In this document: positions 14,793 to 54,009 of the stretch, piece after piece
How positions within the stretch are numbered: position 1 is the stretch's first letter
Layout of the letters: each line of letters opens with the position of its first letter
Origin: Ostreococcus lucimarinus
Taxonomy: Eukaryota
Length of the DNA stretch: 64,000 bases
Reading direction: 5' to 3' (one strand)
Assembly (NCBI GenBank): GCA_000092065.1
Contig: CP000600.1
Notes under the pieces: model-generated
Told to the model about the DNA's origin: nothing
What the model saw: only the letters and a program-made list of their open reading frames with translations
Database searches by the model: none
Position numbers and translations under genes: made by a program

Positions 14793-17700
14793 ATGCGCGC
14801 GCACGTCACCCTCCGCGCGGCGACGCCCGCGCGCGCCGCCGCGACCGTGCGCGCGGGCCGACGACCGTCCGCGATGCGCGCCGACGCGGCGCCGACGCGC
14901 GCGACGAGCGCGCGCGTCGCGTACGGCAACGCGTCGACGACGACGCTCAAGCTCGACGCGCGAGGCGCGACGCGAAGGCCGACCCTAGGCGGGGGGCGTC
15001 GACGATTCGAGACGCGCGCGATGTTTGAGGTGCGCGCGACGCGACCGCGAGGGCGGGGCACGCGAGCGTGTATTTTGATGCGTCGCGGACGCGGCGCGGA
15101 GGGGGAGGGGCGACGCGGGAGAGGACGAGGGACTGACGAGACGATGGCTTCGATCGACGCGCGCGCAGCGGTTCACGGAGAAGGCCATCAAGGTGGTGAT
15201 GTTGGCGCAGGAGGAGGCGCGGCGATTGGGGCACAACTTCGTCGGGACCGAACAGGTGAGTGGAGAGAATATTGAACGCGCGAACGGGCGCGGATTCGGG
15301 GCGCGGGGAAGGGGTAGGGCGGCGTCGGGGGGGACGCGGAGGACGCGACGTTAGGTTTAAGCGGGAAGGCGCGGCGCGCGGGGAACGCGCGGCGGCGTCG
15401 CGGGCGCGAGGAACGCGAGGACGGCGCGCGAGGACGCGTGGGAGGGGTGGAAGATGCGCGCGCGCGCGCGCGACGGCGCGATACGGACGGTGACTGACGA
15501 GACGGCGTTCGCGACGCGACAGATCATGCTCGGTTTGATTGGCGAAGGCACCGGCATCGCGGCCAAGGTGCTCAAGTCGATGGGCATTTCGTTGAAGGAA
15601 GCGCGCATCGAGGTTGAGAAGATTATTGGACGCGGTTCCGGTTTCGTCGCGGTGGAGATTCCGTTCACGCCGCGCGCGAAGCGCGTGTTGGAGCTCGCGC
15701 TCGAGGAGGCGCGCCAGTTGGGCCACAACTACATCGGCACCGAACACTTGTTGCTCGGTTTGCTCCGTGAAGGCGAGGGCGTGGCTGCGCGCGTGCTCGA
15801 AAACCTCGACGCCGACCCGGCAAAGATTCGTTCTCAAGTGATTCGCATGGTTGGTGAGACGCAAGAAGCCGTCGGCGCGGGCGCCGGCGGCGGCCAAGGC
15901 GCGCAATCCGGCTCCAAGACGCCGACTTTGGAAGAGTTCGGTAGCGACCTCACCAAGAAGGCTGAAGAGGGTAAGCTCGATCCGTGCATCGGTCGTGCGA
16001 ACGAAATCGTTCGCGTCACGCAAATTCTCGGTCGCCGTACCAAGAACAACCCGTGCTTGATTGGTGAACCGGGCGTCGGTAAGTCTGCCATTGCCGAAGG
16101 TCTCGCGCAAAAGATTGCCGCCAACGACGTTCCGGATACTCTCGACTCCAAGCGTATGATGACGCTCGATATGGGTTTGCTCGTCGCCGGTACCAAGTAC
16201 CGTGGTGAGTTCGAGGAGCGTCTCAAGAAGCTCATGGACGAAGTGAAGAGTGATGAAAACATCATCCTTTTCATCGACGAAGTCCACACGCTCATCGGCG
16301 CCGGCGCGGCGGAGGGCGCCATCGATGCGGCGAACATCTTGAAGCCGGCCTTGGCGCGTGGTGAACTCCAGTGCATCGGTGCGACGACTATTGACGAGTA
16401 CCGCAAGCACATCGAGAAGGATCCGGCGCTCGAGCGTCGTTTCCAACCGGTTCAAGTTCCGGAGCCGTCGGTGGATGAAACCATTCAAATTCTCCGCGGA
16501 CTCCGCGAGCGTTACGAATTGCACCACAAGCTCAAGTACGATGACGACGCTTTGATCGCCGCCGCAAAGTTCTCGAGCCAGTACATCTCCGATCGTTTCT
16601 TGCCGGACAAGGCGATCGATCTCATCGATGAGGCTGGTTCTCGCGTGCGACTGGAAAACGCCGCCCTCCCGGAGGAAGCCAAGGAACTCGATAAGGAGCT
16701 CAAGGCTTTGATGAAGGAGAAGGATACGGCCATCCGCTCTCAGGATTTCGAAGCCGCTGGTGGCCTTCGTGATCGCGAAGTCGAGCTCAGAGCTCAAATC
16801 AAGCAAATCACCGAGCGAAAGCAAGAGGAGAACAAGGCGAAGGCTGAATCCGGTGACGCGTCTGGTCCGACGGTGGTCGAGCAAGACATTGCCGATATTG
16901 TCGCCGCCTGGACTGGTATCCCCGTCGATAAGGTGTCTTCCGATGAAGGTACCCGATTGATGGACATGGAAGAAACCCTTCACAAGCGATTGGTTGGTCA
17001 AGAAGAAGCCGTCGTGGCGTGCGCTCGCGCCATTCGCCGCGCCCGTACCGGCTTGAAGAACCCGAACCGTCCGGTCGCGTCCTTCATCTTCTCCGGTCCC
17101 ACTGGTGTCGGTAAATCCGAGCTCGCCAAGTCCCTCTCTGCCTTTTACTTCGGTTCCGAAGAAGCCATGGTTCGTCTTGATATGTCCGAATTCATGGAGC
17201 GCCACACTGTTTCCAAGCTCATCGGTTCCCCGCCGGGTTACGTCGGTTACTCTGAGGGTGGTCAGCTCACCGAGGCTGTTCGGCGGCGTCCGTACACCCT
17301 CGTGCTTTTCGATGAAATCGAAAAGGCGCACCCGGATGTGTTCAACATGATGCTTCAAATCCTCGAAGACGGTCGCTTGACCGACTCCAAGGGTCGCGTG
17401 ATTGACTTCAAGAACACCCTCATCATCATGACGTCGAACGTTGGTGCGTCGGCGATTGAAAAGGGTGGCGGTGGATTGGGCTTCCAACTCGACGACAACG
17501 CGGAGGATCAGTCCTACAACCGCATTAAGAGCTTAGTCATGGAAGACTTGAAGAACTACTTCCGACCGGAATTCCTCAACCGTCTTGACGAAATCATCGT
17601 GTTCCGTCAACTCAACAAGCAAGAAGTGCGAGAAATTGCGTACATCATGCTCGAGAACGTCTTCAAGCGCCTTAAGGAGAAGGAAATCGTCCTCGAATGC

Positions 17701-17949
17701 ACGGAGCGATTCAAGGATCGTCTCGTCGACGAGGGTTTCTCTCCGGCGTACGGTGCGCGTCCTTTGCGTCGCGCCATCATGCGCTTGCTTGAGGACAACC
17801 TCTCCGAGAAGATGCTCACGGGTGAGATTTCGGAGGGTTCGTCGTGCATTATGGACGTGAACGCGGAAGGTGAAATCACGGTGTTGACTGGCGACGGTAG
17901 AGAGCTGAAGGCTGGTAGCGCGATCGGTGGTCCGGCTGGCATCGCGTAA
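14793..17949 (+). CDS. CLPC: Chloroplast ATP-dependent Clp protease chaperone subunit ClpC (Hsp100); 3 exons: join(14793..15029,15169..15255,15523..17949)
   Basis: Exon 1 (from ORF 14793..15275): transit peptide [31 protein letters not shown]...RAMFE. Donor gtgcgc at 15030. Exon 2 (frame shift +1; acceptor cgcgcag at 15166-68): [29 protein letters not shown]. Donor gtgagt at 15256. Exon 3 (acceptor gacag at 15520-22, ORF 15454..17949 frame): [92 protein letters not shown]..., two AAA+ modules ([16 protein letters not shown]; [12 protein letters not shown]). Junctions MFE|RFTEKAIKV and GTEQ|IMLGLIGEG reproduce the conserved ClpC N-domain exactly. Intron lengths 139 and 267 nt fit the frames. 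Confidence 0.85.
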
Positions 17950-18256
17950 TTCTAGGCTGCGAGAACGCTTAAAAAATGATTGATTACAAAATGACTTTTG
18001 TTCTTTGGGGGTCACCCCATCATCAGCGTCGGAGCCTGTGTTATTAGGCGATTTAGATTACGTGTCTCTCACGCATGTTATACGATGAAACGAGCGAATT
18101 AACACCCGCGCGCGCCGAACCACATAAGTGACCTCTTCTCCTCTGAGCTCGTCAGTCCACGACACGGCCCGAATTCTCAGAGCAATTTGACAGATTGTTT
18201 TGATTGTTTGTATCGATTATCACAACTGTTGTATGTTCGTAACGTCGCAACGAATC

Positions 18257-21121
18257 CTAAGCCAGCAACTGAACCAAGTCCCCCCGTATAGAGCACGTCT
18301 CTTGCTCGACGAGTAACATCGCTGCGTCTCGAACTTCCTGCACGCTGAGCGCCATAGAACCGTCTCTCTCCGCGAGCATCTTTACCAACTCACTCAATCT
18401 AAGTCGACCGCTCGACGACGTCAAGCACGCCGTGATACCGTCAGCGATGACCTTGCGGTGTTGACGATCGCTCGCACTGTGTCCGGTTAAAATCTTGTCC
18501 ATGTCGATGGTGCCCGTTCGGGGATCGACGGCGGATTGTTGCATGGCGACGCGCATCAAACGCAACGCTTCCTTCGCGTCGTCGCGATCGACTCGGACGC
18601 TCAAGCGCATACGGGCGAGAGACTCTGAAAGACGGATCAAAGACTCCAACTGTCTCGGCGTCGCCGTGATCACTTTACGACTACCTCCCATGCGACGCAT
18701 CTCCACGTACCCTTCGACGAGCTCCTCCGCGGCTTCATCGCTCAGCACCGGTTGTACGTGAGATCGCGCGAAAGAAACGTAGTCGGTGAGCAACGACGCT
18801 TCAATCGCGCCGCGCTTCTTTTGCGGCGGATCTTTGTAGTGCAAGCTCACCAAGTGTCGCGCCAATCGTCGATCCGTCTCCGGGTTCGCGCGATCGAGCA
18901 AAAGGTACAACAAATCGAAACGCGAGAGAAGCGTGGGCGGAAGCTGAATGTTCTCCACCATGGACATATTTGGGTTGTATCGACTCCCCACCGGGTTCGC
19001 GGAGGCAAGCACGGATGTTCGCGCGTTTAACACGGCGATGATGCCAGCCTTGGCGATGGAAACCGTTTGTTGCTCCATGACTTCGTGCAACATCGATCGA
19101 GCGCTATCAGACATTTTGTCAAACTCGTCGATGCAACAAATTCCTCTATCGGAAAGCACAAGGGCTCCAGATTCAAGAACCATGTCCTTTGATTCCGGAT
19201 CGCGTGTGACGTACGCCGTGAGACCGACCGCTGAGGAACCTCTGCCCGAGGTGTACATGCCGCGCGGCGCGATGCGGTGGACGTACGTCAACAATTGCGA
19301 CTTGGCCACCCCCGGATCACCGACTAGTAAAACGTTTATATCACCGCGAACTTTATTTGCTGCGGTGCCACTGAATGTCTTGTTCGTCGCCCCGAAGAGT
19401 TGGCACAGTAGCCCTTTCTTCACGTCTTCCAACTCCCAAATCGACGGCGCGAGCGACGCCACGAGACGTTGGTAAATATCCGGCGATCGCCCGAGCTCTT
19501 CGATCTCCGCCGTCCTCGCCGGAGTGAACTCGAGTTGGGCGTTCGGATTTTGATTGCTCGCCGGTTTCGATGCGCGCTCGGCGGAAGAATGCTTCGCCGC
19601 TTCGTCGTCTTCGGTGCCCGCGGTGTTTCGCATGCGATTACCGGCGTCTTTTCTAATGTGAATAATGTCCAAGTACGTCTTGTACACGCTCTTCAACGTC
19701 CTTCGCGTCGAACTGATGCGAATCGGCACGGCGCGGTACACTCCCGTGACTTCCACGCGATCGCCGGGTTTGGCTTGGTCGACGAGTTCGTCGAAAACGC
19801 ACATCGAAACAGTGTGTGGGGTTTCACCCTCGGGAATCGCGTCCGGCGTCTCTTGCATTTTGACGGTTTGCTTGTTCGCGAAGACGCACTGGTTATGAAT
19901 CAACGTCATCGTCCCTGGCTTTCCGCACTCCGTACACTTGAGCGGGGGCTCGTTCACGCGTCCACGATCAACCTGAACGTGCTCGGGGGCGAACCCGCAC
20001 ATCAAGCATTTGAAGTACGCGAGCTTCAGATCGGGAATAATCGTCGTGCATCGCGTCACCATCCCGCGCACGCACACCATCTTGTCAATATCCGAAGGAT
20101 TCAAGTCACGCATCGGCTTGGCGTCCATCATGTTGAACGGTCGAACGATGATTCGCGCGGCGGGCGTGTCCTCGTCCATATCTTCGGGCGCGACGACGTT
20201 TTCCAAAAAGTATTCGTTCGCCACGACATCAAAGAGCGGAATGATCTCTTGCGGATAATGAATCAACTGCTTGTACAAAAACTCATCGTACTCGTGCACG
20301 TGTTGACAATCCAAATCCAAGTGCGTGTGCTCTTTTTCGTAAATCTCTCGCATGCGCTCGTCGTAGTACGAATCCGCGGAGTCGGGCAATTCAAAGTTTT
20401 CGATAAACCTCCGAAAGCGCTGCTGCGTGTCGAGCACGTTCACCCTCGTCCCCCAAATGTACGTCTGCGCCGCCACCTCATCCCGCTGCGCCTGCGCCGC
20501 GTGCAAGTGTTCGCCCGCGCTCATCGGCGGCGACGCCAAGAAATCCGCCGCGTCCTGCGTCGCCGTCAACTGTGTCATCTCCTGCGTCCCGTATCGTTGA
20601 CTCGCCCCCGGCGCGCCGAATCCGTCGTCGTCCCCGTCCGTCACCCGCCTCGCCCTCGCGCTCCCATTCAGCCCCAAATCGCTCCTCGGCGTCGCTCTCG
20701 GCGTCCCAAACAATCTCGGCGTCCCAAACTGTCCCTGTCCCTGTCCCTGTCTCGCCGGCGTCACCGCCTCCCGCGTCCCGTTCGCCCCGCTCGACCGTCG
20801 CCGCGCCGGCGGCGAAAACAAATCCTCCATCGGGCTCCCTCTCCCTCGTCCCGCGCCCTCGGGCCCCCCGACCGCCCGCGCCCGCGGCGGCGACATCAAC
20901 CCCACGTCCGCGCCCGCGCTCGCCCCGCCTCGCCCCCCCGACCGCGTCGGCGCCGCGTTCTCGTCGTCCTCGTCCCCAGCTGTCGTCGCGATCGCGACGT
21001 CCCGCCCGTCCCGCGTCGTCGTCTCCGCGTTCGCGTCGCTCAGCCGTCGTCGCGTCGTCGCCGGCGACGCCGACGGCAACCTCGACGGCGCCTTCCTCGG
21101 GCTTCGTCGCGGCGTCGACAT
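18257..21121 (-). CDS. MCM4: DNA replication licensing factor MCM4
   Basis: First ATG at 21121 ([23 protein letters not shown]...; the ORF-track start 21208 is GTG). Zn finger CLMCGF..CTECG; Walker [12 protein letters not shown]; Walker B/arginine finger [31 protein letters not shown]...[11 protein letters not shown]. Ser/Thr-Pro-rich N-tail is typical of MCM4. A TGTAA-type signal (ttttgtaatc, minus strand) lies in the shared 3' UTR zone at ~17980. Confidence 0.85.
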
Positions 21122-21495
21122 CGCCGTCGAGCGCGTCGCGGTGTCGCGCGGCGTTTGAAATCCGCCGCGCGCGCGATTCAAACGCGCGACGAGACTGGGT
21201 TTACACACGGACGCATCGATCCCCCGTCGACCGGTCGCGACTCGACGACGCGGGGGGTCCGCGTCGTCGATCGGTCGGATCGTATATAGGCGTTCGACGC
21301 CGCGATGTGCGACGCGCGCGCGCGATTTTCATTTACGTCGCGGGTTCAGGGTCGCGCGACGTCGGCGACGTCGGCGCGCGCGCGGGCGCGACGCGCGCGC
21401 GCGACGCGCGGCACACCGCGACGACGTCGCGACCGACCCACGAGGCGCCGCACGTCGCGCGTCGACACACGCCACCGCGCACCACGAGCTCGAAC

Positions 21496-22476
21496 ATGTT
21501 CGCGCGAACCATCGGCCGCGCGCGCCCCGCGCGCGCGACGCCCGCGGACAAGCGCGCGGACAAGCGCGCGGCGGCGACGCGCGCGATGACGCGCCCGGTC
21601 GCGCTCGGCGACGCGCGCGCGGTATTTACGACGAGCGCGTTCAGGGCGAACGCGGTCGAGCGCGCGCGCGACGTGCGCGCGCGCGGGGCGAGACGGTCGA
21701 CGGTGATGGCGGCCAAGGTGGCGGGGTACATCAAGCTCGCGATCGAGGCGGGGAAGGCGTCGCCGGCGCCGCCGATCGGACCGGCGCTCGGCGCGAAGGT
21801 GCGTGAGAATATTTCGTTCGACGCGACGACGGCGCGCGCGGGACGCGCGCGCGGACGCGCGCGAGGGAGGGGTGGGAGAACGCGCGCGGCGGGTGAGGGT
21901 GGAAGACCTAGGCGAGAGAGGGTTTCGCGCGGCGACGCGAGCGCGCGAGGGACGACGGCTGGGCGCGACGCGCGGGCGCGGTGGCGAGGGAGACGCGCGC
22001 GCGATGGATCGATGGTCGCGGGGGACGCGCGCGGCGCGGTCGGGACGCGAGTGGTGCGGTGAATCGACGCGAACGGCGACTGACGACGACGACGACGCGC
22101 GCGCGCGATTCGCGGCACGCAGGGCGTGAACATCATGATGTTTTGCAAGGAGTACAACGCGCGCACGCAAGATCAACCGGGTATGATCATCCCGGTCGAG
22201 ATTACCGTTTTCGAGGATAAGTCCTTCACGTTCATTTTGAAGACCCCGCCGGCGTCGGTGTTGTTGAAGAAAGCCGCGGGCGTGCCCAAGGGGGCGGGCG
22301 ATCCGCAAAAGCAAGTCGTCGGGCGCGTGACCAAGGAGCAACTCGAGGAAATCGCCAAGATTAAGATGCCCGATTTGAACTGCGTCAAGGTGGAAAGTGC
22401 GATGAAGGTCGTCGCCGGTACCGCGGCGAACATGGGGATCAAGATTGACGGCTGGCCCGAGGTCGACGCCGCGTAA
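21496..22476 (+). CDS. RPL11: Organellar (plastid or mitochondrial) ribosomal protein L11, 2 exons: join(21496..21798,22123..22476)
   Basis: Exon 1 (in ORF 20572..22062 frame): presequence [24 protein letters not shown]..., then [31 protein letters not shown]. Donor gtgcgt at 21799. Acceptor cacgcag at 22120-22. Exon 2: [54 protein letters not shown]..., stop at 22474-76. Bacterial-type L11 signature PPVGPALG|QGVNIM..FCK.FNA.T is restored across the splice. TGTAA signal at ~22606. Confidence 0.8.
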
Positions 22477-23388
22477 AGCGCGACGACGACTGCGGACGCC
22501 CCGTCGTAGCCGAGACGAAGGCGCGCCGAAGAACATTCTTACGCTCCCGTGGCGATAAATTCATATAAATTGCTCGAAGACCTCGCGTAGTGGTCTGCGT
22601 TAGATTTGTAAATGCTTTATACCTAGTGATGAAAACGAACGCCCCCTCGACTCGCGAAGAGACGACCCTCGCGCGCCCAAGCCCTATCCGCGAAACGCGA
22701 ATCGGTGCGTGTGAATTATAACAATGCTACGCTGACGACGCCCTACTTCTTCAACTCCCGGTGAAGCGTGTGCTTTTGCAAGAACGGATTGTACTTCATC
22801 AACTCCAATCTCTGCGACGTGTTACGACGGTTCTGCGAATCGAAAACGAGCGCGCCTCCGTCAGTCCTTCGTCCCGAAACCCTCAAATCGTCCCGTCGTC
22901 CCATCCCTCGTCGTCCCGCGCCGTCCCGCGCCGGCCTCGGCGCGCGTCCCGCGCGCGCCCGCTTCGCCTCGCGTTCGCCCGCGCGTCATCGCTTACCTTC
23001 TGGGTCATGTATCGCGACATCCCCTGCACGCCGCTCTCCTTTTGCTCGGTGCACTCGAGGGTGACTTGCAGGCGCACGTCCTTCTTCTTGCTCGCCGCCG
23101 TGACGACGAGCGCGCCGCGCGAGCGCTCTCTGGCGCTCGCGGCCGACGGGCGCGCGGCGAGCGAGCTGGTGGAGCAGACGTTGGCGCGGGCGGCGAGCAT
23201 GGCGAGTCGCGGCGCGGAGTGCCGGCGCGGCGATCGGGCGGCGGACGTCGGCATCGCGCGCGTGTGCGCAAACAGTACGCGTGTACTTTTATGGGGTGGT
23301 CGGTCGGACACCGCGCGCGCGAACCGCGCCCGAACCGCGCGCGCCGACGCGCGCGACGCGAGTCCGCGACGCCGACGCGCGCGCCGTC

Positions 23389-24082
23389 ATGTCCGCCGAC
23401 GCCTCGACGCGACGATTCAAGATTTACACCAAGACGGGCGACGCGGGGACGAGCTCGCTGTACAATTGCGAACGACGCGATAAGGACGACGCCGCGTTCG
23501 ACGCGCTCGGGGACGTCGACGAGTGCAACGTCGCGTGCGGGATCGCGCGGGAGTTTTGCGTCGATGAAAACAACGGGCTCGAGGCGCAGGTGCGGCGTCG
23601 ACGACGACGGACGCGAGGGGAGAGAGCGAGGCGACGACGCGCGGCGAGCGACGACTGACGGGGACGACGAACGACGCGACGCGCAGCTCGCGGAGATTCA
23701 GAGTCGATTGCTCGACGTGGGATCGGCGGTGGCGACGCCGCTGTATGCAAGCTCGGACGCGATGAAAGCGCGCGCGGCGTTTTCGGAGACGCACGTGGAG
23801 ACGTTGGAGGGATGGATCGACGGGATGGACGCCGAGTTGCCGGCGCTGTCGAGTTTTCTGCTCGTGTCGGGGGGGAAGGCGAGCGTGTTTTTACACCAAG
23901 CGCGCGTCGTGTGTCGACGCGCGGAGCGTAGGTGCGTGCCGTTGGTGCGGAGCGGAGCGGTACCGGACGTGGTGCGGGTGTACTTGAATAGATTGAGCGA
24001 TTACATGTTCACCGCCGCGCGTTTCGCGGCGATGAAAGCGGGCAGAGAGGAGGAGGCGTACAAAAAGTCGACGGCGAATTGA
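23389..24082 (+). CDS. MMAB: ATP:cob(I)alamin adenosyltransferase, PduO/MMAB type, 2 exons: join(23389..23589,23687..24082)
   Basis: Exon 1: MSADASTRRFKIYTKTGDAGTSSLYNCERRDKDDAAFDALGDVDECNVACGIAREFCVDENNGLEAQ (compare the family consensus KIYTKTGDKG.S...ERR.KDD..FEA.GT.DEL). Donor gtgcgg at 23590. Acceptor gcgcag at 23684-86. Exon 2: LAEIQSRLLDVGSAVATPLYASSDAMKARAAFSETHVETLEGWIDGMDAELPALSSFLLVSGGKASVFLHQARVVCRRAERRCVPL... Intron 97 nt, consistent with the +1 frame change between ORFs 23281..23658 and 23042..24082. Confidence 0.8.
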
Positions 24083-24160
24083 ATCGGGACGTGTCGAAAT
24101 AATCGAGCGAGCTTGCAAATACTACGTCTACGTTAGGTGTACAAATGATCTATTCAACGC

Positions 24161-25866: not shown

Positions 25867-25904
<38 letters not shown>

Positions 25905-28648: not shown

Positions 28649-30000
28649 CTCGCCGAGCCGTTCGGCGTCTCGATCGCGCGTCTCAATCGCGCCGCGCGTC
28701 GCCTCGAAGCTCTTTCGCGATGCTTTTTGAAATCCAAAAGATCTCGCGTTCGCGTCGCGTCGTCCGCCGTTCGCGCGTCGTTCGCGCGTTCGCGCGTTCG
28801 CGCGTTCGAGACCGCGACCGAGGCGCTTCGGCGCGCGGTCGCTCGCCTCGTCGCGCGCGCGGTCGCGGCGTCGGCGTCCGCGGCGTCGCGCGCCGCGCGT
28901 CGCGCACAGGGAGGCGAGCGAAACACGGACCAGTCTCACGGATACGAAACGACACAACACGGACCGGTGACCCGAAACGACGCCGACGGTCGCGCGCGCC
29001 GTCGACGCCGACGCGCGCGACGACGATGGCGCGCGCGCCGGCGACCGACGGCGGCGACGCGGCGTCGGCGTTTCGCGCGCGCGATGACGGCGCGAGACGC
29101 GCGTATAACGTCGAGATCCCGGCGGCGTGGCAGCGCGAGAGCGTGGACGAGTCGCTGCTGCGAGGGCACAGAAGCGCGTGTACAACGGCAACGCGCACTG
29201 ATCGTCGTACGCGTACACGCCTCGCGATCGCCCCGAGCGCCGAGGAGGGCGCCGCGACCGTCGCCCTCCTCGAGCGAGGTTTCGCGAACGCGCTTGCTCG
29301 CGACGAGCTCCGGCGCCGCGCAAAGCTTCGCGAGACGACTCGCAGCCGCGCGCGCACATATCGCTCGGTCGCCCGCGTCTTGACCGGGCGCGAGCGCGAT
29401 TTGCGCGAGCCGCGCGAAATTTCGGTCCCCCGCGACGCGCGCGTTCTCCGCCACGCGTCGTTGGCGTCGCAGAAACTTTTTCGCGTGCGTCTTCTTCGTC
29501 ATGCCTCCATGTGACGTTTCGTCTCGGCGTCTCGACCTCGTGACGCGCGCCTCGGACGCGCGCGAGGGCACCTCGGCACTCTGCGACGCGCGCGCGACTC
29601 GGCGCGGTCGTCGCGGACGCGTCGCGAGAGAAGAAAAAAAGTCGAGCGTCGAACCGCGCGTCGTTCGAGCGCCGCGCCGCGGCGCGCGCGACGCGCGGAC
29701 GCGCGAGATGGGGCGCGTTGAAGCGGCGTTTCTCGGCGCCGGATCCCGCCTCGGGCGGCGCCTCGGGCGTCGCGCGCGCGACTAGCAAGACACGAAAACG
29801 AAGGAAAGAAAGCGGGTACGAATTCTTTTGAATCGATGTGCGCGGCGATGGACGCGCGCGCGCGCGTTCGCGCGCCGACTCGCGCGATCGTCATCTCCGA
29901 GACGGGCCGCGCAGACTGACCCTCGCGCAGAGGCCGACGCCAGAAGACACGCGAAACAAGGCGGCGATAGCGTACAAACTATCGCTCGCCTGCGGCAGGT

Positions 30001-30033
30001 TAACCCAGGGTTGACCCAGGGTTGACCCAGCCG
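30001..30033. repeat. Tandem 11-mer (gggttgaccca)x3 inside the 1.7-kb gene-free spacer between SSRP1 and Cpn20
   Basis: Seen directly: taacccagggttgacccagggttgacccagccgcag. Confidence 0.8.
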
Positions 30034-30380
30034 CAGCATTACACCCTCGCGACGCGAGGACGCGAAGGAGGGACAGCTCGCTCGCGCGATCTCGTAGCCC
30101 TCGAAAGTAGCGATTGTAATGCGCCGGAAGACTTCCATCGAGTCGCTTCGCCGAGAGAGCGCCGACGACGTCGAGCGCGGCGCCGCCGTCGCAGACGCCG
30201 CCGCCTCCCCGCGCTAGCCTACCCTCCCAATATTAGTATACTTCACCCACCGTCGTTTTCTTCCCCATCGCGCGTCGCGCGACGACGTCCACGACGTCTC
30301 CAAATTCCGCGCGCGCCGCGGAGGCGTCCTTCCAGAAGCCGACGCCGCGCGCGCGTCCTCATTACTCGCCGCACATCCGA

Positions 30381-31280
30381 ATGTTCGCCGTCTCCGCGCA
30401 CTCGCGCGCGCGCATCGCGCCCGCGGTCATTCCGCGCGCGCGCGCGCGCGTCGTCACGCGCGCCGGCGCCGCGTTCGAGGTGCCGTCGGCGTACAAGACG
30501 GTGACGCCGTGCGGCGCGGGCGTCTTAATCAAGGTGGCGGCCGCGGAAACGGTGACCAAGGGCGGGATCGTGCTCACGGAGAGCGCGCAGCGCAAGCCCA
30601 CGAGCGGTGCGTCGACGCGTTCGACCGACGCGCGCGCGCTCGAGGACGGGCGACGCGACCGCGCGACGCGCGCGGGGGATAAAGGACGACACCCTAACCT
30701 TGAGGGTTTGACGGCGGGACGCGCGGCGAGACGCGCGAGACGCGAATGGATCGACGCGCGAACGCGAGCGACGCGCGAAGACTGACGACGATGACGAATG
30801 AATCGCGCAGGCGACGTCACGGCGATCGGACCGGACGTGAAACACGTCAAGACCGGTTCCACGGTGTTGTACAGCAGATTCGGCATCGGGTGCACCGACG
30901 TGGTCGTCGCCGGCGAGGAGTACACGATGATTCGAGAACAAGATCTCATCGGTACGCTCCCGAGCAGCGGCGCGCGCGCGAACGATATCCCAAAGCTTCA
31001 ACCTTGCGGCGATCGCGTCCTGTTGTCGGTGGAGAAGGCGGCCGCGGAAACCAAGGGGGGCATCTTACTCACGGAGGGGTCCAAGGAGAAGCCCATCGTC
31101 GGCACCGTCGTCGCCGTCGGGCCGGGCAAGGCGGGCGAAAAAGACGAAGAAGTCAAGCCGATGACCCTGAAGGCGGGCGACAAGGTGATTTACTTCAAGT
31201 ACGCCGGTGACCAAATGACCGACGAGGAAGGCAACGGCTTCGTCGTCTTGCACGAGAGCGACTGCTTGGCCAAGCTTTAA
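30381..31280 (+). CDS. CPN20: Chloroplast 20-kDa co-chaperonin Cpn20 (double GroES), 2 exons: join(30381..30606,30811..31280)
   Basis: Exon 1: MFAVSAHSRARIAPAVIPRARARVVTRAGAAFEVPSAYKTVTPCGAGVLIKVAAAETVTKGGIVLTESAQRKPTS+G. Donor g|gtgcgt (30607). Acceptor cgcgcag (30808-10). Exon 2: (G)DVTAIGPDVKHVKTGSTVLYSRFGIGCTDVVVAGEEYTMIREQDLIGTLPS, then second GroES domain LQPCGDRVLLSVEKAAAETKGGILLTEGSKEKPIVGTVVAVGPGKAGEKDEEVKPMTLKAGDKVIYFKYAGDQMTDEEGNGFVVLHESDCLAKL. Intron 204 nt, phase 1. Confidence 0.8.
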
Positions 31281-31745
31281 GCCGCGCGCGCGTCGCGTCG
31301 CTCGTTTAGAACGTCGACGTTGTGAGTACCAGCGCCGGATCGAACGTCGAACCGACACATCGCAGAGCCTTCGCCGCGCGCGTCGCGTCGCGTCCTCCCC
31401 TCGCGTCCTCGCCCTCGCCGACAAAAAAGAACGCAACGCGTAAACAGAAACCACGATACTCGCTCCGCGCGAACCCGCGCGTCGGCGCCTTCGCCGCGCG
31501 ATCGGCGCGATCGCTTACGGGCCGATCCATCGACCGACCGCGCGCGCGCGTACGCGCAAACAGTCTCGCGATCGAACCACCACCCAATAAACCACCCATC
31601 GCATTGAAATCACGCATTCAAAGACCCCGAACCGGTATCGATCTCCACCCCGCGCCGCCCGACGCGACGCCCGTCGCGCGCGCGGTCGATCGCGCGATCG
31701 CGCGCTTCGTCGCGCCGCGACACTCCCGCACGCGCGCACAGGACC

Positions 31746-33152
31746 ATGCAAGTCAACGCCCTGCTCAAGAAAGCCGCCCCCGCGCCCGCCAAGACCGCCA
31801 AGGCGCCGGCGAAGACGCAGATCAAGAAGGCGCCGGCGAAGAAGGCGTCGCCGTCGCTGCCGTCGCTGCCGAATCCGTTCGGCGGCGCCGCGCCCAAGGC
31901 GAGCGCGAAGACGGTCAAGAAGGCCGCGCCGGCGAAGAAGGCGGTCGCGAAGAAGGCGCCGGTCAAGAAGGCGCCGGTCAAGAAGAAGGCGCCGGTCGCG
32001 AAGAAGGCGGCCAAGTCGCCGACCGCGGCCAAGGAGGCGCTCGCGAAGTGGTACGGTGCGTATCTTTTAAAGGCGATCGGATAGGATCGTTCGACGCGCG
32101 CGACGACGCGCGGACGCGCACAGGACGCGCGCGCGCGATGGGAATCGATCGTTAAGTGCGCGTTCGCGCGAACGGGGCGACGCGGGACGCGCGCGCGGGA
32201 GGACGCGTGGCGGAAATCGGAAGATATGGTTGCGATCGCGCGCGCGGGACGGAGGCGGGACGCGGGACGGACGCGCGCGAGGGACGATAGAGCGGGCGCG
32301 AGGGACGCGCGGCACGCGGGGGGGTGAGAAGGGCGAAGGAAACGCGCGCGATGGGGAGACTGACGATGCGCGACGACGCGTTCGACGCAGGTCCGGACCG
32401 TAAGTTGTACTTGCCGGGCGGCCTCTTGACCAAGGCGGATTTGCCGAGCTACCTCGACGGTACGCTCGCGGGTGATTACGGCTTCGACCCGCTCGGCCTC
32501 GGCGCCGACGGTGCGATCAAGCAATACCGCGTCGCGGAAGTCATCCACGCTCGATGGGCGATGCTCGCGATCCCGGGTGTCGTCATCCCGGAGGCGCTCG
32601 GCTTGCCGGGCGGCGTCTGGACGGAAACCGGCAAGGTGTTCCTCGACGGCGAAACCGGCCGTCCGTTCTTCCTCGAGAACCCGATCGTGTTCGCGGCCGT
32701 CCAAGTTGCGCTCATGGCTGGTGTCGAGCAATTCCGCTCGAGCGGTGAAGGTCCGGCCGGTTTCGTGCCGTTCAAGGGCAAGTTCGACGAGTCGGCGTTC
32801 AAGGGCCTCGACCCGATCAACCCGGGTGGCCCGCTCGACTTCTTCAACGTCGCCTCCAACCCGCAAGACTTGGCCCTCTTGAAGGTCAAGGAAATCAAGA
32901 ACGGTCGCTTGGCGATGATCGCCATGTTGGGCGTCTTCGTGCAAGGTCTTACCACCGGTGAAGGTCCGGCTGCCAACTGGGGCAAGCACGTCGCCGATCC
33001 GTTCGGTACGTAACGCGCGCGCGCGCCTCGCCCATCGACGACCGCGTTCGCGTGTTTTCCACGAGCACTCACTGACCCCGCTATCTCTCGTCTCCCACGC
33101 AGGTTACAACTTCGTCACCCTTCAAGCCGTCGACCGCACGCCGGTTCTTTAA
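31746..33152 (+). CDS. LHC: Chlorophyll a/b-binding light-harvesting protein (LHC family) with a long Lys/Ala/Pro-rich N-terminal exon; join(31746..32055,32391..33013), or with a candidate terminal intron join(31746..32055,32391..33005,33103..33152)
   Basis: Exon 1 ends ...AKEALAKWY+G (donor g|gtgcgt at 32056). Exon 2 starts (G)PDRKLYLPGGLLTKADLPSYLDGTLAGDYGFDPLGLGADGAIKQYRVAEVIHARWAMLAIPGVVIPEAL...KVKEIKNGRLAMIAMLGVFVQGLTTGEGPAANWGKHVADPFG. The splice rebuilds the LHC hallmark WYGPDR. First and third helix motifs E..H.RWAML and E.KNGRLAM are present. See findings for the optional 3' intron (gtacgtaa...cactcactgacc-polyPy-acgcag). TGTAA signal at ~33233. Confidence 0.8.
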
Positions 33153-33392
33153 GCGCGAGTTTGAAACAATTTTTCAAACTTTTGTGACGCGACCTGTTCA
33201 TGTATAGCCGCTCGACCGGCTCGCTCGTTCACTTGTAACGGAAGACCGTGATATTCAACCACGACGCGCTCGACGCGTCGGCGCGCGACGCGTCACATCA
33301 CCGATAGCTGCCGCCAGCGCGCATCTCTCTCCAGTCGTCGCCGCGTCGCCGCGCGCGCCGCGCCGCACTCGGCGCCTCCGCGCGGCGTCGTC

Positions 33393-34654: not shown

Positions 34655-35224
34655 ATGTTCCCTCCCCGCGCCGGTCAGTGCGCGTGCGTCATCGACGGCG
34701 CGCACACCGAGTTCTTGATCACCGAGTACGCCGACCGCGTCCTCGTCGTCGCGACGCAGATCGGTAAACTCGGCACGGTGTTTCATCTCTCTCGCAGTCA
34801 ATCGGTCGAGCTCAGCGATCCCTCCTACGAGGACGACGGCGAGACGATGGACGACGCGACGGCGAGCATGGACACCGTCATCGCGCGCACGGTGATCGGC
34901 AGGCGCGACGACGACGCGCTGCGGGCGTGCGCGAGAAGGATAGCGGACGTGCTGTTCACCGAAGGTTTGGAAAAGTGCGTCGAGCGACGCCGCGACGAGA
35001 CGACGCGCGAACGCGACGACGACGCGCGAACGCCAGACTGACGCGAAAACGCCGGGCGCGCGATTTTTACGACGCGCAGGCCGATCGTGTGCGCGCTGGG
35101 GTTGCGGTCGGACGCGAGCTTGGAGGCGAAGCGGGCGGTGGCGCGAGTCGCCGTCGAACGCGGTCGCGAGTTGTTGGCGGCGTCGCGCGCCGCGGAGGGA
35201 AGCGGAAGTCGTAGTTTTGATTAG
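34655..35224 (+). CDS. PSMG3: Proteasome assembly chaperone 3 (PSMG3/PAC3)-like, 2 exons: join(34655..34974,35080..35224)
   Basis: ATG at 34655 (MFPPRAGQCACVIDGAHTEFLITEYADRVLVVATQIGKLGTVFHLS; compare human VVCTAFSSHILVVVTQFGKMGTLVSLE). Donor aa|gtgcgt at 34975. Intron contains cagactgacg and ends gcgcag (35077-79). Exon 2 in the same frame: (K)PIVCALGLRSDASLEAKRAVARVAVERGRELLAAS..., resembling the PSMG3 C-terminus RAVLLAVAVKDKSMEGLKAL. Stop at 35222-24. Confidence 0.55.
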
Positions 35225-44131: not shown

Positions 44132-44158
44132 AACAACGTTCTATCTACAGCGTGGTTT

Positions 44159-46177: not shown

Positions 46178-46337
46178 GCTCGCGTTCGGCGACGCGGCGA
46201 TGTGGCGGCGGCGCCGCACTTCCGCGCGCGACGACGCGACCGCGCGACGCGACCGCGCGCGCGAACGCGCACGACCCGCGAGCTCACGAACGCGCGCGCG
46301 CGAGGACGACGCGCGACGCGCGCGAGTCCGAGGCGAG

Positions 46338-46857
46338 ATGGCGACCAAGGTGCAGCGCATCATGACCCAGCCGATCGTGCGTTTCGACGCGACGCGACGA
46401 CGCGCGCGACGACGCGACCGCGACGCGACCGCGACGCGCGACGCGACCGCGCCTCGACGCGACCGCGACGCGCGCCTCGACGCGAGCGCGACGTCGACGG
46501 GACGCGCGCGGACGCGAATTCGAGAATTCCTCTAGGGTAGCCGCGCCGCGCGTCGACGCGAATCGAACGAAATCGAGCCGACGCGACGGACCGAACGACT
46601 GACGACGGCGCGATGACGCGTCGCGCGGACAGAATTTGATCTTTCGGTTCCTGCAGACCAAGGCTCGGGTGCAGATTTGGATGTACGAGAATCCGGACAC
46701 GTGCGTCGAGGGACGAATCGTCGGCTTCGACGAGTACATGAACTTGGTGTTGGACGACGCGGAGGAGGTGACGGAGAAGAAGTCGCGTCGCGTCGGCGTG
46801 GGGAGGATTTTGTTGAAGGGGGATAACATCACGTTGATGCGAAACGTGAGCAAGTGA
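46338..46857 (+). CDS. SNRPE: Small nuclear ribonucleoprotein Sm E, 2 exons: join(46338..46376,46633..46857)
   Basis: Exon 1: [13 protein letters not shown] (donor gtgcgt at 46377). The 256-nt intron ends gaacgactgacgacggcgcgatgacgcgtcgcgcggacag. Exon 2: [74 protein letters not shown]; compare human Sm[75 protein letters not shown]. Confidence 0.8.
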
Positions 46858-46999
46858 GCGCGCGCGCGCGCGACGCGGATGTAGCTTTGTTAATCGTAAA
46901 ATCACCGTAGGAAGGATTCGCCGGGCGCGGCGGACGCGCCGCGACGCCACACGACGACGCGCGTCTCGCGTCGCGTCGATCGCGTGGATTCGCGCGAAC

Positions 47000-49411: not shown

Positions 49412-49467
49412 CTCGACCGTTCCTTAGCCGTCTGTACGCCGACGACTGCCCCAACCGTCGCCACACC

Positions 49468-51720
49468 ATGCCCGACGACGACCTCGCGTCTTCCGTCACC
49501 CAACGCTTCGAGGCGCGCCTGCGCGACGTCTTCCCGTCCACCGCGCTCGCCGACGCCCTCGAAAACGTCCGCGCCATCGCGCTCGACGCCGACGAAGACG
49601 CCGCCGACGGGGATTTCGAGAGCGCTTTTTCAACGCTCGACAGCGCGCTCAAAGCGCTCGCGTCGAGCGATGTTCCCGACTCGCACCTCGACGCGCACGC
49701 GCAACGACTGCGTTTGCGCGCGTTCGTCGCGCGCGGGCGCGCGGCGCTGGCTCTGGGCGACGCGGAGGCGGCGCTCTCGCTGAGCCACGAAGCATTCGGC
49801 GAGAGCGCGTTCGACGGCGGCGACGCGGCGACGACGACGGAAGTCCTTCGCGTGAACGCGATGGCGCACAGCGCGCTCGGGAATCGCGAAGCGAGCGTGT
49901 TGGTGTGCGTGGACGCGCTGGCGCGCGGGTGCGACGTGAGCGATGGGTTTCCGGAGGACGCGGCGACGGACGCGCGGCGGCGAAGAGAGGCGCCGTGCGA
50001 TACGCCGCTCGATCGGTTCGTCATGCTCGTCATGCGCTTGAATCGCACGGATGAGGACAGACAGAGGATCGCGGGGGCGTTGGAGATGCTAGAGCGAGGC
50101 TTCATCGTGGATTCGAGGGATGAGAGTGGGCATAACGTGCTTTGGGGAGCTTTGATGGGAGCCGCGGCCGTCGCCGCGGACGAAGGCGCCGCGGCGGGCG
50201 AGGAAACGGTGGCGGTCTTGCGCATGCTTCTCGAACGAGGCGCTCGAGCGAATCAAAGGTATGATTCCGGCGAAACGCCGTTGCACTTGGCGGCGTCGAG
50301 CGGGGTCTTGGGCGCCGTCGCGGCGGTGTTGGAACACGGAGGCGATCCAAACGCTCGCAACGACGACGGAAGAACGCCGCTGATGCTCGCGTGCGCGCGC
50401 AAATTGGAAGAAAGTGAGCGTCCGCACATCGTTGAAACGCTCGTGAGTTGTGGGACAAACGTTGAAGCTCGTGATTCGAATGGTTTGACGGCGCTGCACA
50501 TCGCGTGCAAGTGCGGCAACGACGTCGTCGTCGAAGCGTTGCTTCGATGCAAAGCTGACTGGCGCGCGCGAACGCCGAAGCTCGGTGAATCAGCGGTGAT
50601 GCTCGCGTACACTCACGCGCGTGCTTCAGGAGTGATTGCGGAGATTTTGAAGTACGTCGAATCTCTCGAGGGCGAAGCCGCGATGGTTGGCGAGACTGAA
50701 TTTTTTCGCGCGACGTCTCCGCTCTTTGCGACGACGACGGCGGCGGTGCGTTGCGTGAAGGAAGACATCGCTCTGGCGAAATGGTGCGAGCGCGAAAAAG
50801 AAATAAGTGCGTGCATCGCTAAAGTGAGTGGTGTTACAACCGGGAGTGTTGATTCGGGCAAAATCATACGCTTTCCCGAAGATGCGTCGTGGAGTCCCGA
50901 GGCACGACAAGAAGTCACCGCGCTTTATTTCCGGGCGTGCGACTTTGAACTCGACGACGACGATGACAAATCAAACGTCGCCGTTTCGCTGTATCGCAAG
51001 TACGGGGACGTTCTGTCCGCGTTCATTCGATTCAATCACGCCAATTTCCCCATGTCACTCGGCGAGTCGTACGCCGACGGAGGGGAAACCTTGCCCATCG
51101 ATTTCGTTGCTCGAGCGCTTTACGCCTCGAAACAAGCGAGCGGCTCGTCGACCTGCGTCGGCGTATCCTCGAGTCTGACGCCCACCAAACTACATTCACC
51201 GGTGTACGTCGCGTTCATGACCGTCATGTCGCTCAGCGTCGATCGCACGTTTCACTACGCCCCGTTCATCACCGACAACGCGAAGGCTTGGTTGATGGCT
51301 GAATCAGCGTTTATTTGCGTGAGTCGAGGCGGCGCGTACACCGCGGCGCGATTGCGAGACGCACTGAACGTCCCAACGACGGTCATATTGCTCAGGTCTG
51401 ACGACGACGCAACGCCGGCGTGTTTTGTGGAAGACGCGACGGTGATCGAGCAATCGAAGTTTCGCGAGACGCGACTCGATTCGCACTCTCACGCGACGTT
51501 GCTCGTCGAACTCGTCCCGGGCGACACCGAGTTGCTCGAACTCGCCATTGACAGCTATGGCGGGACCACCCTCACGCTCGTAAACGCGCGCAGTGACGAC
51601 GCCGAGTGTGGGGCCGTCGCGCGCGCGCGCGGTTTCAAAGAAGACGCTCGCAAACGCGCGCCTTCGTTCGTCGCCTCTGGCCGTCCGTTCGCGTTCTCGC
51701 GATGGACCAAATCTCCGTAG
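49468..51720 (+). CDS. Hypothetical ankyrin-repeat protein (750 aa) with TPR-like N-terminal region and unassigned C-terminal domain
   Basis: ATG at 49468, in frame with ORF 48889..51720 (the upstream part overlaps the VPS53 3' end in another frame). ANK repeats: DSGETPLHLAASSGVLGAVAAVLEHGGDPNARNDDGRTPLMLACAR...GTNVEARDSNGLTALHIACKCGNDVVVEALLRC. C-terminal ~350 aa with no recognisable motif. Only 57 nt from the VPS53 stop. Confidence 0.55.
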   Translation: MPDDDLASSVTQRFEARLRDVFPSTALADALENVRAIALDADEDAADGDFESAFSTLDSALKALASSDVPDSHLDAHAQRLRLRAFVARGRAALALGDAEAALSLSHEAFGESAFDGGDAATTTEVLRVNAMAHSALGNREASVLVCVDALARGCDVSDGFPEDAATDARRRREAPCDTPLDRFVMLVMRLNRTDEDRQRIAGALEMLERGFIVDSRDESGHNVLWGALMGAAAVAADEGAAAGEETVAVLRMLLERGARANQRYDSGETPLHLAASSGVLGAVAAVLEHGGDPNARNDDGRTPLMLACARKLEESERPHIVETLVSCGTNVEARDSNGLTALHIACKCGNDVVVEALLRCKADWRARTPKLGESAVMLAYTHARASGVIAEILKYVESLEGEAAMVGETEFFRATSPLFATTTAAVRCVKEDIALAKWCEREKEISACIAKVSGVTTGSVDSGKIIRFPEDASWSPEARQEVTALYFRACDFELDDDDDKSNVAVSLYRKYGDVLSAFIRFNHANFPMSLGESYADGGETLPIDFVARALYASKQASGSSTCVGVSSSLTPTKLHSPVYVAFMTVMSLSVDRTFHYAPFITDNAKAWLMAESAFICVSRGGAYTAARLRDALNVPTTVILLRSDDDATPACFVEDATVIEQSKFRETRLDSHSHATLLVELVPGDTELLELAIDSYGGTTLTLVNARSDDAECGAVARARGFKEDARKRAPSFVASGRPFAFSRWTKSP

Positions 51721-51760
51721 CCCCCGTAGCCCCCGTAGCCCCCGTAGCCCCCGTAGCCCG
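51712..51760. repeat. Tandem 9-mer (cccccgtag)x4-5 in the convergent 3' spacer
   Basis: Seen directly: ccgtagcccccgtagcccccgtagcccccgtagcccccgtagcccggtag. It overlaps the ankyrin gene's stop codon. Confidence 0.8.
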
Positions 51761-51777
51761 GTAGTCCTAGCGGCGCG

Positions 51778-52320
51778 CTACACCCCAGGTTCATCGCAGC
51801 ACACCATGATGACGTCCGCGTCCACGGCGTCGCTCATCGCCGCCGGCACCGTCCTTCGCCGCATCGTGAAATCGTCGTCCCCGCTCGAGTACTCGTAAAT
51901 CGCCCCCTGCGCGTACTTCACCGCCAGCCCCACCATCGCGCGTCGCCCGTCGTCCGCGTCCTCCAAATCAAACCCCACGACGTACCCATCCTCTCGCCAT
52001 CCCTCCGAGAACCCGTACGACGCCCATCGTCGCCGCGCGTTCGCCGCCGCGAGCGCCGTCAGGTCCGCCTCCAGCCTCGCGTTCGCGCGCGCGTTCGCCT
52101 CCGCCGACGCGATCGCCCCCATCGGGTTGTGCGCCGTGATCGCGAACAGCGCGTGCGTCCGCACGATCGCCGGCACCGCCCGCGCGCCGTCGTCGTCGTC
52201 GTCGCGCGCGCGCGGCTTGAAAAACGTCGTGCTTCCGCGCGGCGTTCCCGGGACGTCGATCCACGCGTCGAACGAGCGCGCCCACAGCGCGCTAAGCGCG
52301 CCCTCGCGGTCGGTCGCCAT
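51778..52320 (-). CDS. Hypothetical protein (possibly DUF3293-like, motif ITAHNP); start uncertain (52320 or 52374)
   Basis: 3' part of ORF 51778..52746. [25 protein letters not shown]...[65 protein letters not shown]...[16 protein letters not shown]. The DUF3293 association is from memory of an 'ITAxNP' motif and is weak. Confidence 0.4.
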
Positions 52321-52509
52321 CGTCCGCGTCGACGCGCGACGCGGCGCGCGACACGGCGCGCGCGCGAGTCGCATCGTGCGGCGCGCGCGAACGCGAACGC
52401 GAACGCGCATCCAATCGATCGCCGCGTCGTCACACGCCGACGCGTCTACCGTCGCGGAGACCGCGGTCGCCGGCGCAGCGCCTCGCAACGCATCGCTCGA
52501 CGCCTCGCG

Positions 52510-54009
52510 ATGCCGCCGAAGAAGAAGCAGGACGCCGCGCCCGCGGAGGAGGAGGAGGAGGAGCTCTTGGATTACGACGACGTCGCGGACGCGGCGGAGA
52601 CCGCGGTCGCGCCGACGGACGACGGCGCGACGGACGGCAAGGACGCGGCGAAGAAGGGTTACGTCGGCATTCACAGCACCGGGTTTCGGGACTTTTTGCT
52701 CAAGCCGGAGCTGCTGCGGGCGATCGTGGATTGCGGATTCGAGCATCCGAGCGAAGGTGAGATCTCGGTTAAATTAATGGAATTAGAGCGCGCGAGAGTC
52801 GGCGAATCGCGCGCGAATCGGCGCGAATCGGCGACGAGGACGGCTCGCGGTGGGGCGAGGGCGCGAAGCGATCCCGAAGCGCGCGCGAGCGAACGTCGAG
52901 CGCGAGGACTGACTGCGAATTAACGTACGCGATTGGCAGTGCAACACGAATGCATTCCGCAAGCCATTCTCGGCATGGACGTGCTGTGCCAGGCGAAGTC
53001 TGGGATGGGGAAGACGGCCGTGTTCGTCATCACGGTTTTGCAGCAGCTCGATCCGGTGCCGGGCGAGGTCGGCGCGGTGGTGATGTGCCACACGCGCGAG
53101 CTGGCGTACCAAATTTCGCACGAGTTTGAGCGCTTTTCTACGTTTTTGGGCGACGTGACGACGGCGGTCGTTTTCGGCGGCATCCCCATCGCCCAGCAAA
53201 AGGAGCAACTTAAGTTGCAGCCTCCGAACATCGTCGTCGCGACGCCGGGTCGTTTGAAGGCGCTCGCGCAGGACGGTACCTTGAACCTCAAGAAGTGCGC
53301 GCACTTTGTGCTCGACGAGTGCGACAAGATGTTGGAAGCCGTCGACATGCGCGCCGACGTGCAGGAGATTTTCAAGATGACTCCCCACGACAAGCAGGTG
53401 ATGATGTTCACCGCGACGCTCTCCAAGGAGCTCCGCGCGCTGTGCAAGAAGTTTATGAACGATCCGATGGAGATTTTTGTCGACGACGAAACCAAACTCA
53501 CGCTGCACGGTTTGGTGCAGCACTACGTCAAGCTGGAAGAGGCGGAGAAGAACCGCAAGTTGAACGATTTGTTGGACTCTCTCATGTTCAATCAAGTCGT
53601 CATCTTCGTTTCCAGCGTGCAACGTTGCAAGGCTTTGGACAAGCTCTTGCAAGAGTGCAACTTTCCATCCATCGCCATTCACGGTTCGATGGGCCAAGAA
53701 GAGCGTTTAGCGCGCTACAAGTCGTTCAAAGATGGTGACAAGCGTATTCTTGTCGCCACCGATCTCGTCGCGCGCGGTATCGATATCGAGCGCGTGAACA
53801 TCGTCATCAACTACGACATGCCGTCCAGCGCGGATACGTATTTGCACCGCGTCGGTCGCGCCGGTCGCTTCGGCACCAAGGGTCTCGCCGTCACGTTCGT
53901 CGCCTCGTCCGAAGACACCGAGGTCTTAAGCTCTGTACACGAGCGCTTCGAAGTCGAGATCAAGGAGTTACCGGACGAGATCGATCAATCGACGTACATG
54001 CCGAGCTAA
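52510..54009 (+). CDS. UAP56: DEAD-box RNA helicase UAP56/SUB2 (DDX39B), 2 exons: join(52510..52756,52940..54009)
   Basis: Exon 1: [24 protein letters not shown]...[35 protein letters not shown]+g. Donor g|gtgaga at 52757. The 183-nt intron ends gaggactgactgcgaattaacgtacgcgattggcag. Exon 2: (V)[36 protein letters not shown]...DECDKML...[10 protein letters not shown]...[74 protein letters not shown]. Near-identical to human UAP56 across the junction ([32 protein letters not shown]). Confidence 0.85.

Follow-up and report, generated by a model that had tools for sequence, protein, structure and literature searches.

The stretch of DNA analysed here, called the window in the following, comprises 64,000 nt of contig CP000600.1 from Ostreococcus lucimarinus. 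Its proteins, spliced as well as unspliced, are identical to NCBI entries of O. lucimarinus CCE9901, and codon-usage scoring in combination with Pfam scans places approximately 40 genes in the 64 kb. The GC content varies between 53 and 71% (2-kb windows). The window is nuclear DNA outside the low-GC outlier region BOC1 of chromosome 2, as follows from its composition and its intron types. It holds eleven introns, i.e., 0.28 per gene and 3.4% of its length, and the present analysis deals with their strict splice signals and with their position close to the start codon. The finding is real but ordinary, and it is already explained.

All eleven introns are of the GT-AG type, with lengths of 97-335 nt and a GC fraction of 0.63-0.75. 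The donors comprise seven GTGCG, two GTGAG, one GTAAG and one GTACG; every acceptor ends in CAG, eight of them in CGCAG. The motif ACTGAC occurs in each intron, GACTGAC in ten and the extended form GACTGACG in nine. Its A, which we predict as the branch point, lies 25-39 nt before the 3' end in all cases. The motif clearly exceeds chance expectation: counted over the window, GACTGACG is observed 10 times against 4.45 expected, with nine copies inside introns, and GACTGAC is approximately 240-fold enriched in introns relative to the rest. ACTGAC occurs 17 times on both strands together. Eleven of these copies are the branch sites of the eleven introns, four lie in antisense to coding sequence, one is found past the MCM stop codon and one in a gene-free gap.

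An earlier note on this DNA, made from the letters only, had taken GACTGACG for a near-invariant extended branch site. This is in good agreement with the published consensus of the species: among introns of O. lucimarinus outside chromosome 2 that are confirmed by expressed sequence tags, 87.2% carry ACTGAC and 66.5% GACTGACG (Irimia & Roy 2008, PLoS Genet 4:e1000148; PMC2483917), and the same introns show the donor GTGCGTG, the acceptor CGCAG and a distance of 20-35 nt between branch point and AG (PMC2483917). Rigid branch sites are described there as evolving in intron-poor lineages. The branch motif is thus a rediscovery of an already known, species-specific result, and since it is the species-wide branch-site consensus, it is no mark of common descent of the introns that carry it. 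An Rfam search returned no RNA family in the window and therefore no known intron-hosted small nucleolar RNA and no U2 gene that could be set against the branch motif.

The position of the introns was evaluated over 39 complete genes with 16,766 codons, counted from the ATG, where 25% of the codons belong to the first 110 of a gene. Ten of the eleven introns fall within 110 codons of the ATG, whereas 2.8 are expected (p = 1e-5 for a uniform distribution over all codons, p = 1e-3 given the host genes); the threshold of 110 codons was picked after the data had been seen, and the sample consists of eleven introns from one window. Codons 67-108 contain the start of nine introns, with host genes that range from 97 to 916 codons. 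Expressed as a fraction of the coding sequence (CDS), the positions are 0.09, 0.12, 0.15, 0.19, 0.32, 0.33, 0.34, 0.46, 0.69, 0.70 and 0.95. The host genes are shorter than the other genes (median 218 aa vs 431 aa, p = 0.0065). The actual pattern is therefore one of introns 40-325 nt past the ATG of mostly short genes, rather than of introns in the first part of each gene.

The earlier note had listed nine introns, in ClpC (two), L11, MMAB, Cpn20, LHC, PSMG3, SmE and UAP56, all of which exist at the codons it gave (Table 1). Its generalization that every intron interrupts the first ~15-105 codons has to be corrected: ten of eleven lie within 108 codons of the ATG, but the L33 intron (70% of the CDS) and the second intron of CP26 (95%) had been overlooked. 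As both belong to the 3' halves of their genes, the list was skewed, and the 3' intron of CP26 refutes the wording that every intron is near the 5' end.

Table 1. Introns of the window with their splice signals (positions refer to the window; codon numbers are followed by the length of the CDS in codons where available)
Intron	Coordinates	Strand	Length (nt)	Phase	Position in CDS	Donor	Branch motif	Branch A to 3' splice site (nt)	Acceptor	Identical NCBI protein
ClpC intron 1	15030..15168	+	139	0	after codon 79/916	GTGCGCG	GGACTGACG	32	GCGCAG	
ClpC intron 2	15256..15522	+	267	0	after codon 108	GTGAGTG	TGACTGACG	25		
Plastid ribosomal protein L11	21799..22122	+	324	0	after codon 101/218	GTGCGTG	CGACTGACG	39		
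Plastid ribosomal protein L33	22833..22996	-	164	0	after codon 68/97 (70% of CDS)	GTAAGCG	GGACTGACG			XP_001422677.1 (97 aa)
MMAB (cobalamin adenosyltransferase)	23590..23686	+	97	0	after codon 67/198	GTGCGGC	CGACTGACG			XP_001422511.1
Cpn20	30607..30810	+	204	1	codon 76/231	GTGCGTC	AGACTGACG			XP_001422512.1
CP26/LHC intron 1	32056..32390	+	335	1	codon 104/324	GTGCGTA	AGACTGACG			XP_001422513.1 (324 aa, both introns removed)
CP26/LHC intron 2 (3'-terminal)	33006..33102	+	97	1	codon 310/324	GTACGTA	TCACTGACC		ACGCAG	XP_001422513.1 (324 aa, both introns removed)
PSMG3/PAC3	34975..35079	+	105	2	codon 107/154 (69% of CDS)	GTGCGTC	AGACTGACG			XP_001422515.1
SmE	46377..46632	+	256	0	after codon 13/87	GTGCGTT	CGACTGACG			XP_001422520.1
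UAP56	52757..52939	+	183	1	codon 83/438	GTGAGAT	GGACTGACT			

Support for splicing differs between the introns. It is direct for CP26, where five independent Logan RNA contigs (L005-L009) encode the doubly spliced protein, annotated at NCBI as 'putative CP26', as one open reading frame (ORF) and fall into three alignment blocks on the window (31509..32055, 32391..33005 and 33103..33261), so that both introns are skipped. It is indirect for L11, L33, MMAB, PSMG3 and UAP56, whose exact spliced proteins are single ORFs in Logan assemblies; the exact models of L11 (218 aa) and UAP56 (438 aa) are present in RNA-derived Logan assemblies only, and the MMAB cluster includes a 198-aa transcript product from MMETSP. 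Cpn20 and SmE are supported by the exact NCBI model: the spliced proteins of MMAB, Cpn20, PSMG3, SmE and L33 equal their NCBI counterparts residue for residue. No transcript was obtained for ClpC, Cpn20 or SmE; the two ClpC introns are predicted from the sequence model.

The 3'-terminal intron of CP26 deserves a closer description. The unspliced frame meets a TAA two codons inside it, and it was overlooked because in an ORF- and homology-based reading this stop codon passes for the actual end of the gene. The intron also differs from the rest of the set in composition: it is the sole pyrimidine-rich intron of the window, with a purine fraction of 0.38, a pyrimidine-rich tail and the branch sequence CACTGACC. 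In another Ostreococcus (L020, ~2100-2175) and in Bathycoccus (L022, ~2090-2151) the intron is absent and the peptide DPFGYNFVTL is continuous. Judged from these sequences, it would be either a recent gain or an intron lost twice, and it may be regarded as a candidate recent gain in an intron-poor genome. Inspected by eye, its ends resemble each other loosely (GGTACGTAAC / GGTTACAAC), a likeness that does not count as evidence of transposon hallmarks such as a target-site duplication or terminal inverted repeats.

Exon 1 of CP26 (31746-32055) encodes an N-terminal extension of ~100 aa, rich in Lys, Ala and Pro with KKAPAKK-type repeats and histone H1-like in appearance, which lies ahead of the conserved WYGPDR with which the LHC domain begins. 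Bathycoccus and another Ostreococcus have a similar extension.

Comparison with other lineages shows that the five 5'-proximal introns compared occupy old sites. In another Ostreococcus (L010, 56% GC; the protein cluster contains a transcript of O. mediterraneus) the UAP56 intron interrupts the same Val codon with identical phase; the streptophyte Klebsormidium nitens (L014) likewise agrees in codon and phase and has it as intron 2 of 8. The seven further Klebsormidium introns have no counterpart in Ostreococcus, and in Chloropicon and one further relative UAP56 is a single ORF. Both ClpC introns are found at the same sites (MFE|RF and TEQ|IM) in L017, a Mamiellophyceae-like contig of 67% GC from another genus, together with a third, more downstream intron that is missing from ClpC of O. 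lucimarinus. For L11, the same contig has a GTGCGA donor after the same codon (GAK|G), shortly before its sequence ends. Another Ostreococcus (L020) and Bathycoccus prasinos (L022) both have an intron that matches CP26 intron 1 in codon and phase. All five 5'-proximal introns tested (UAP56, ClpC 1, ClpC 2, L11 and CP26 intron 1) thus lie at sites shared with other genera, and CP26 intron 2 is the single unshared site among the six introns compared. The five shared sites imply that these introns are older than the species, which weighs against recent insertion.

The introns of the relatives at the shared ClpC and CP26 sites look unrelated by eye to those of the window. At the ClpC and L11 sites of L017 (9282-10072) the introns are pyrimidine-rich and carry a plain CTGAC, whereas those of the window are purine-rich; the composition has therefore turned over fully while the position was kept.

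From these observations we consider it quite probable that the introns are ordinary U2-type spliceosomal introns of the non-outlier chromosomes of O. lucimarinus, and that their 5' clustering reflects old introns which survived massive loss. The genome holds few introns, and its spliceosome relies on strict signals: a GTGCGT-type donor, (G)ACTGAC(G) some 25-39 nt before (CG)CAG, and no pyrimidine tract. Most introns would be old remnants of the loss, which would leave them clustered near the gene starts. The survivors would sit mostly 40-325 nt past the ATG, in short and probably highly expressed genes with plastid-targeted or housekeeping products. Recombination with reverse-transcribed spliced mRNA, selection that keeps promoter-proximal introns, or both, may have caused the differential loss. 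We can only infer this cause, reverse transcription-mediated 3' loss included, and likewise whether 3'-biased loss or selection for promoter-proximal introns prevails.

The literature supports the general picture. Surviving introns of intron-poor lineages tend to lie 5', for which recombination with reverse-transcribed spliced mRNA is the classic account (Fink 1987, as cited in a passage of PMC4540971), and a 5' tendency was reported for the canonical introns of Micromonas (Verhelst et al. 2013, PMC3879977). Expression and intron content are correlated in O. lucimarinus (PMC2367439) and in all Mamiellales (PMC3491373), with an excess of introns in highly expressed genes. A table of intron position along the genes of O. 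lucimarinus was not found in the literature searched, and PMC2483917 is without one. We regard 5' clustering as the ordinary, expected architecture of an intron-poor genome. The intron-poor, yeast-like picture drawn in the earlier note fits, in view of the density of 0.28 introns per gene, the strict GTGCGT donors, the CGCAG acceptors and the missing pyrimidine tract.

Several points weigh against 3'-biased loss of old introns as the full account, in addition to the post hoc threshold and the small sample. Because the host genes are short, the mean relative position (0.39) does not fall significantly under 0.5 (p = 0.11). The introns of L33 and PSMG3 and intron 2 of CP26, three in all, lie at 69-95% of the CDS and 15-47 codons before the stop, exactly where simple reverse transcription-mediated 3' loss predicts the fastest loss. 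The enrichment of introns in short genes is an excess that the 3'-loss model alone does not predict. ClpC of one angiosperm has neither of the two introns, so that great age is not demonstrated for each of the 5' introns. Finally, outgroup introns nearer to the ATG (codon ~37 in Klebsormidium UAP56, codon 23 in Bathycoccus CP26) are absent here, so that loss did not proceed strictly from 3' to 5', unless these introns are gains of the outgroups.

A part of these points would follow if the main cause were selection for promoter-proximal introns rather than 3'-biased loss. By intron-mediated enhancement, known from plants and from the ribosomal protein genes of yeast, an intron located no more than a few hundred bases from the transcription start raises expression; short genes with high expression would then retain introns at a fixed spacing from the start, whatever the gene length. 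In favour of this, the band of codons 67-108 applies to a gene of 97 codons and to one of 916 alike, and the hosts are short and belong to classes with high expression (LHC, chaperonin, plastid ribosomal proteins, Sm protein, UAP56), in line with the expression excess cited above. Enhancement would also account for the introns near the stop codons of L33 and PSMG3, and for the retention of an intron at codon 82 or 103 of UAP56 and CP26 while outgroup introns nearer to the ATG are missing. On the other hand, the band was spotted after the fact among eleven introns and does not include SmE (codon 13) or CP26 intron 2 (codon 310), and enhancement is compatible with the loss model and not exclusive of it. 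As the main cause we consider it possible but doubtful. The tight distance from the ATG, the short hosts, the near-stop introns and the missing more 5' outgroup introns together favour the view that the simple loss model is incomplete or that selection plays some role.

In a stronger version, a preferred absolute distance to the gene start and not 3'-biased loss would determine where introns lie, and separately the 3' intron of CP26 would be a recent gain equipped with full strict splice signals. We think this unlikely; if a preferred absolute distance held true, it would point to a splicing-dependent, promoter-proximal function.

The bias could also be an artefact of detection, as ORFs and homology readily reveal an intron that interrupts a conserved N-terminal region, whereas short terminal exons and in-frame introns escape such a reading. 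Both overlooked introns lie indeed in 3' halves, and CP26 demonstrates the blind spot in the form of a stop codon just inside the intron that poses as the gene end. A signal scan of the whole window, independent of position, found no further sense-strand ACTGAC inside any CDS, and as 87% of the species' introns carry this motif (PMC2483917), few introns can have stayed hidden. This search is blind to introns without ACTGAC, to introns in untranslated regions and to signals at 29838-29943 and 18150, which are described below. A 3'-end scan for donor, branch and acceptor, covering the last 150 nt of each gene and 450 nt downstream, left CP26 as the single credible case. Introns with a length that is a multiple of three contain in-frame stops in five out of five cases, so that read-through introns should be rare. 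In addition, six single ORFs equal NCBI proteins exactly (SNF2, SSRP1, an amine oxidase, an unknown 715-aa protein, a saccharopine-dehydrogenase-like protein and an ankyrin protein), and two more, FBPase and DUF676, differ in the start codon alone. With regard to the earlier note's proposal that transcripts revealing many additional 3' introns would overturn the bias, RNA contigs do expose the 3'-terminal intron of CP26, but one such intron and not many. Since the absolute bias holds with both extra introns counted, an artefact is an improbable explanation.

Two further approaches to intron detection were discarded. A permissive scan of every CDS for donor, CTRAY and AG yielded thousands of combinations and had no discriminating power. 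The density of GACGCG composition, tried as an intron finder, also marks Arg/Ala-rich N-terminal coding regions and tandem repeats; on inspection, its peaks in MCM, Ank1, unk2 and the region upstream of the kinase turned out to lack splice signals. In the 10 kb that follow the window on its right side (L018, 8 genes) no ACTGAC-type intron occurs, which speaks neither for nor against the positional bias. The metagenome contigs L001-L004, with 98.2-99.6% identity to the window, are too similar to expose non-coding segments, and the single-base indels of L003 resemble assembly noise.

Two places outside the catalogued introns carry related signals. One exact copy of GACTGACG lies on the minus strand at 18150-18157, approximately 100 nt beyond the stop codon of MCM, where an AT-rich spacer separates convergent genes. 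No donor was found for it, AG dinucleotides occur only 5-20 nt downstream, and it is not assignable to an intron; probably it is a chance occurrence. The other place is the interval 28650-30380, where 1.7 kb between the starts of SSRP1 (minus strand) and Cpn20 (plus strand) contain no convincing ORF or Pfam match, an unusual situation in a compact genome. Intron-like signals on the plus strand of this gap (GTGCGCG at 29838, GACTGACC at 29914, CAG at 29925 and 29943) could not be assigned to an intron either, and three tandem copies of GGTTGACCCAG are located at ~29998-30033.

The earlier note had offered, as a second option, a mobile intron with a preference for 5' ends. The introns would then be copies of an introner as known from Micromonas, each bringing its own GACTGACG branch site. 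Micromonas does possess introner families, among which IE-C of RCC299 carries GACTGACG (PMC3879977), and the absence of CP26 intron 2 from two relatives could mark a recent gain. The interiors of the introns are also alike in composition, with purine-rich GACGCG/GGGACG runs: ten purine-rich introns are strand-asymmetric, with a purine fraction of 0.56-0.69, 63 occurrences of GACGCG in ~2 kb and no pyrimidine tract. Beyond this low-complexity composition, however, the interiors are dissimilar. Their pairwise alignments score barely above dinucleotide shuffles (mean z = 1.0, maximum 3.8, 45 pairs), and BLASTN of each intron against the window only gave matches of 16-40 nt, mostly 16-26 nt, none of them from intron to intron save short GC-rich ones of ClpC intron 1 within the SmE intron. 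Introners of Micromonas prefer the gene centre and not the 5' end (PMC3879977), the sole candidate gain here is located at a 3' end, and the introner survey PMC9860276 does not mention Ostreococcus in its main text. With no shared sequence beyond signals and composition, intron sequences in the relatives that look unrelated by eye and five sites common to other genera, one of them even with a streptophyte, a mobile origin is largely refuted for the ten purine-rich introns and highly improbable overall.

In its main parts, the analysis rediscovers two published facts, the strict ACTGAC/GACTGACG branch site and the start-proximal introns of intron-poor genomes. It also shows that a reading of the raw sequence can recover real splicing signals, and that ORF-based gene models miss 3'-terminal introns. 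A small, possible novelty resides in the distance window and in the candidate gain in CP26, which could matter to the discussion of the loss, gain and function of introns should they prove to apply throughout the genome; here they are based on eleven introns and few orthologues.

A few observations concern neighbouring gene models. The longest ORF of a minus-strand GTPase gene starts at ATG 46363 and overlaps the plus-strand SmE start (46338) by 26 nt, while codon scoring slightly prefers the downstream ATG 46177 (232 vs 223). On the minus strand at ~5290-5480, just upstream of a protein kinase start at 5278, tandem repeats comprise GACGCGGTC about six times and GAATTCGACGC-type units; the kinase product opens with MGCAQG, a possible N-myristoylation signal. 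An alternative frame at the 5' end of HisRS, suggested by coding potential, was rejected, as it has no Pfam match and the 498-aa single-ORF product is the widely observed one.

Among known systems, the canonical introns of O. lucimarinus outside chromosome 2 are closest, sharing the strict motif, the GTGCGTG-type donor, the CGCAG acceptor, the missing pyrimidine tract and the low density. The motif frequencies of the window are slightly higher than the genome-wide values, and otherwise nothing essential differs; CP26 intron 2, which is pyrimidine-rich and carries CACTGACC, departs from this type. In contrast, the outlier introns of BOC1 and chromosome 2 in Mamiellophyceae, although part of the same genomes, are 40-65 nt long and AT-rich, without branch motif and with weak splice sites (PMC3879977, PMC3491373), unlike the longer, GC-rich introns of the window, all of which carry ACTGAC. 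The introners of Micromonas (Worden 2009; Verhelst 2013; Simmons 2015; Huff 2016) come from the same order and share the GT...GACTGAC...CAG signals and the GC-richness, but they are multi-copy elements of high identity, located mid-gene at positions unshared with orthologues, whereas the introns described here are singletons within the window, five of them at shared positions. Saccharomyces and other hemiascomycetes show the same architecture of few introns, a rigid branch site, 5' concentration and an excess in short housekeeping and ribosomal-type genes. The signals differ, with ACTGAC here in place of TACTAAC at the branch and GTGCGT in place of GTATGT at the donor. Compared with the yeast-type 5' bias, that of the window is clear only as absolute distance from the ATG, with three of the eleven introns near a stop codon and with a role of reverse transcription that is presumed.

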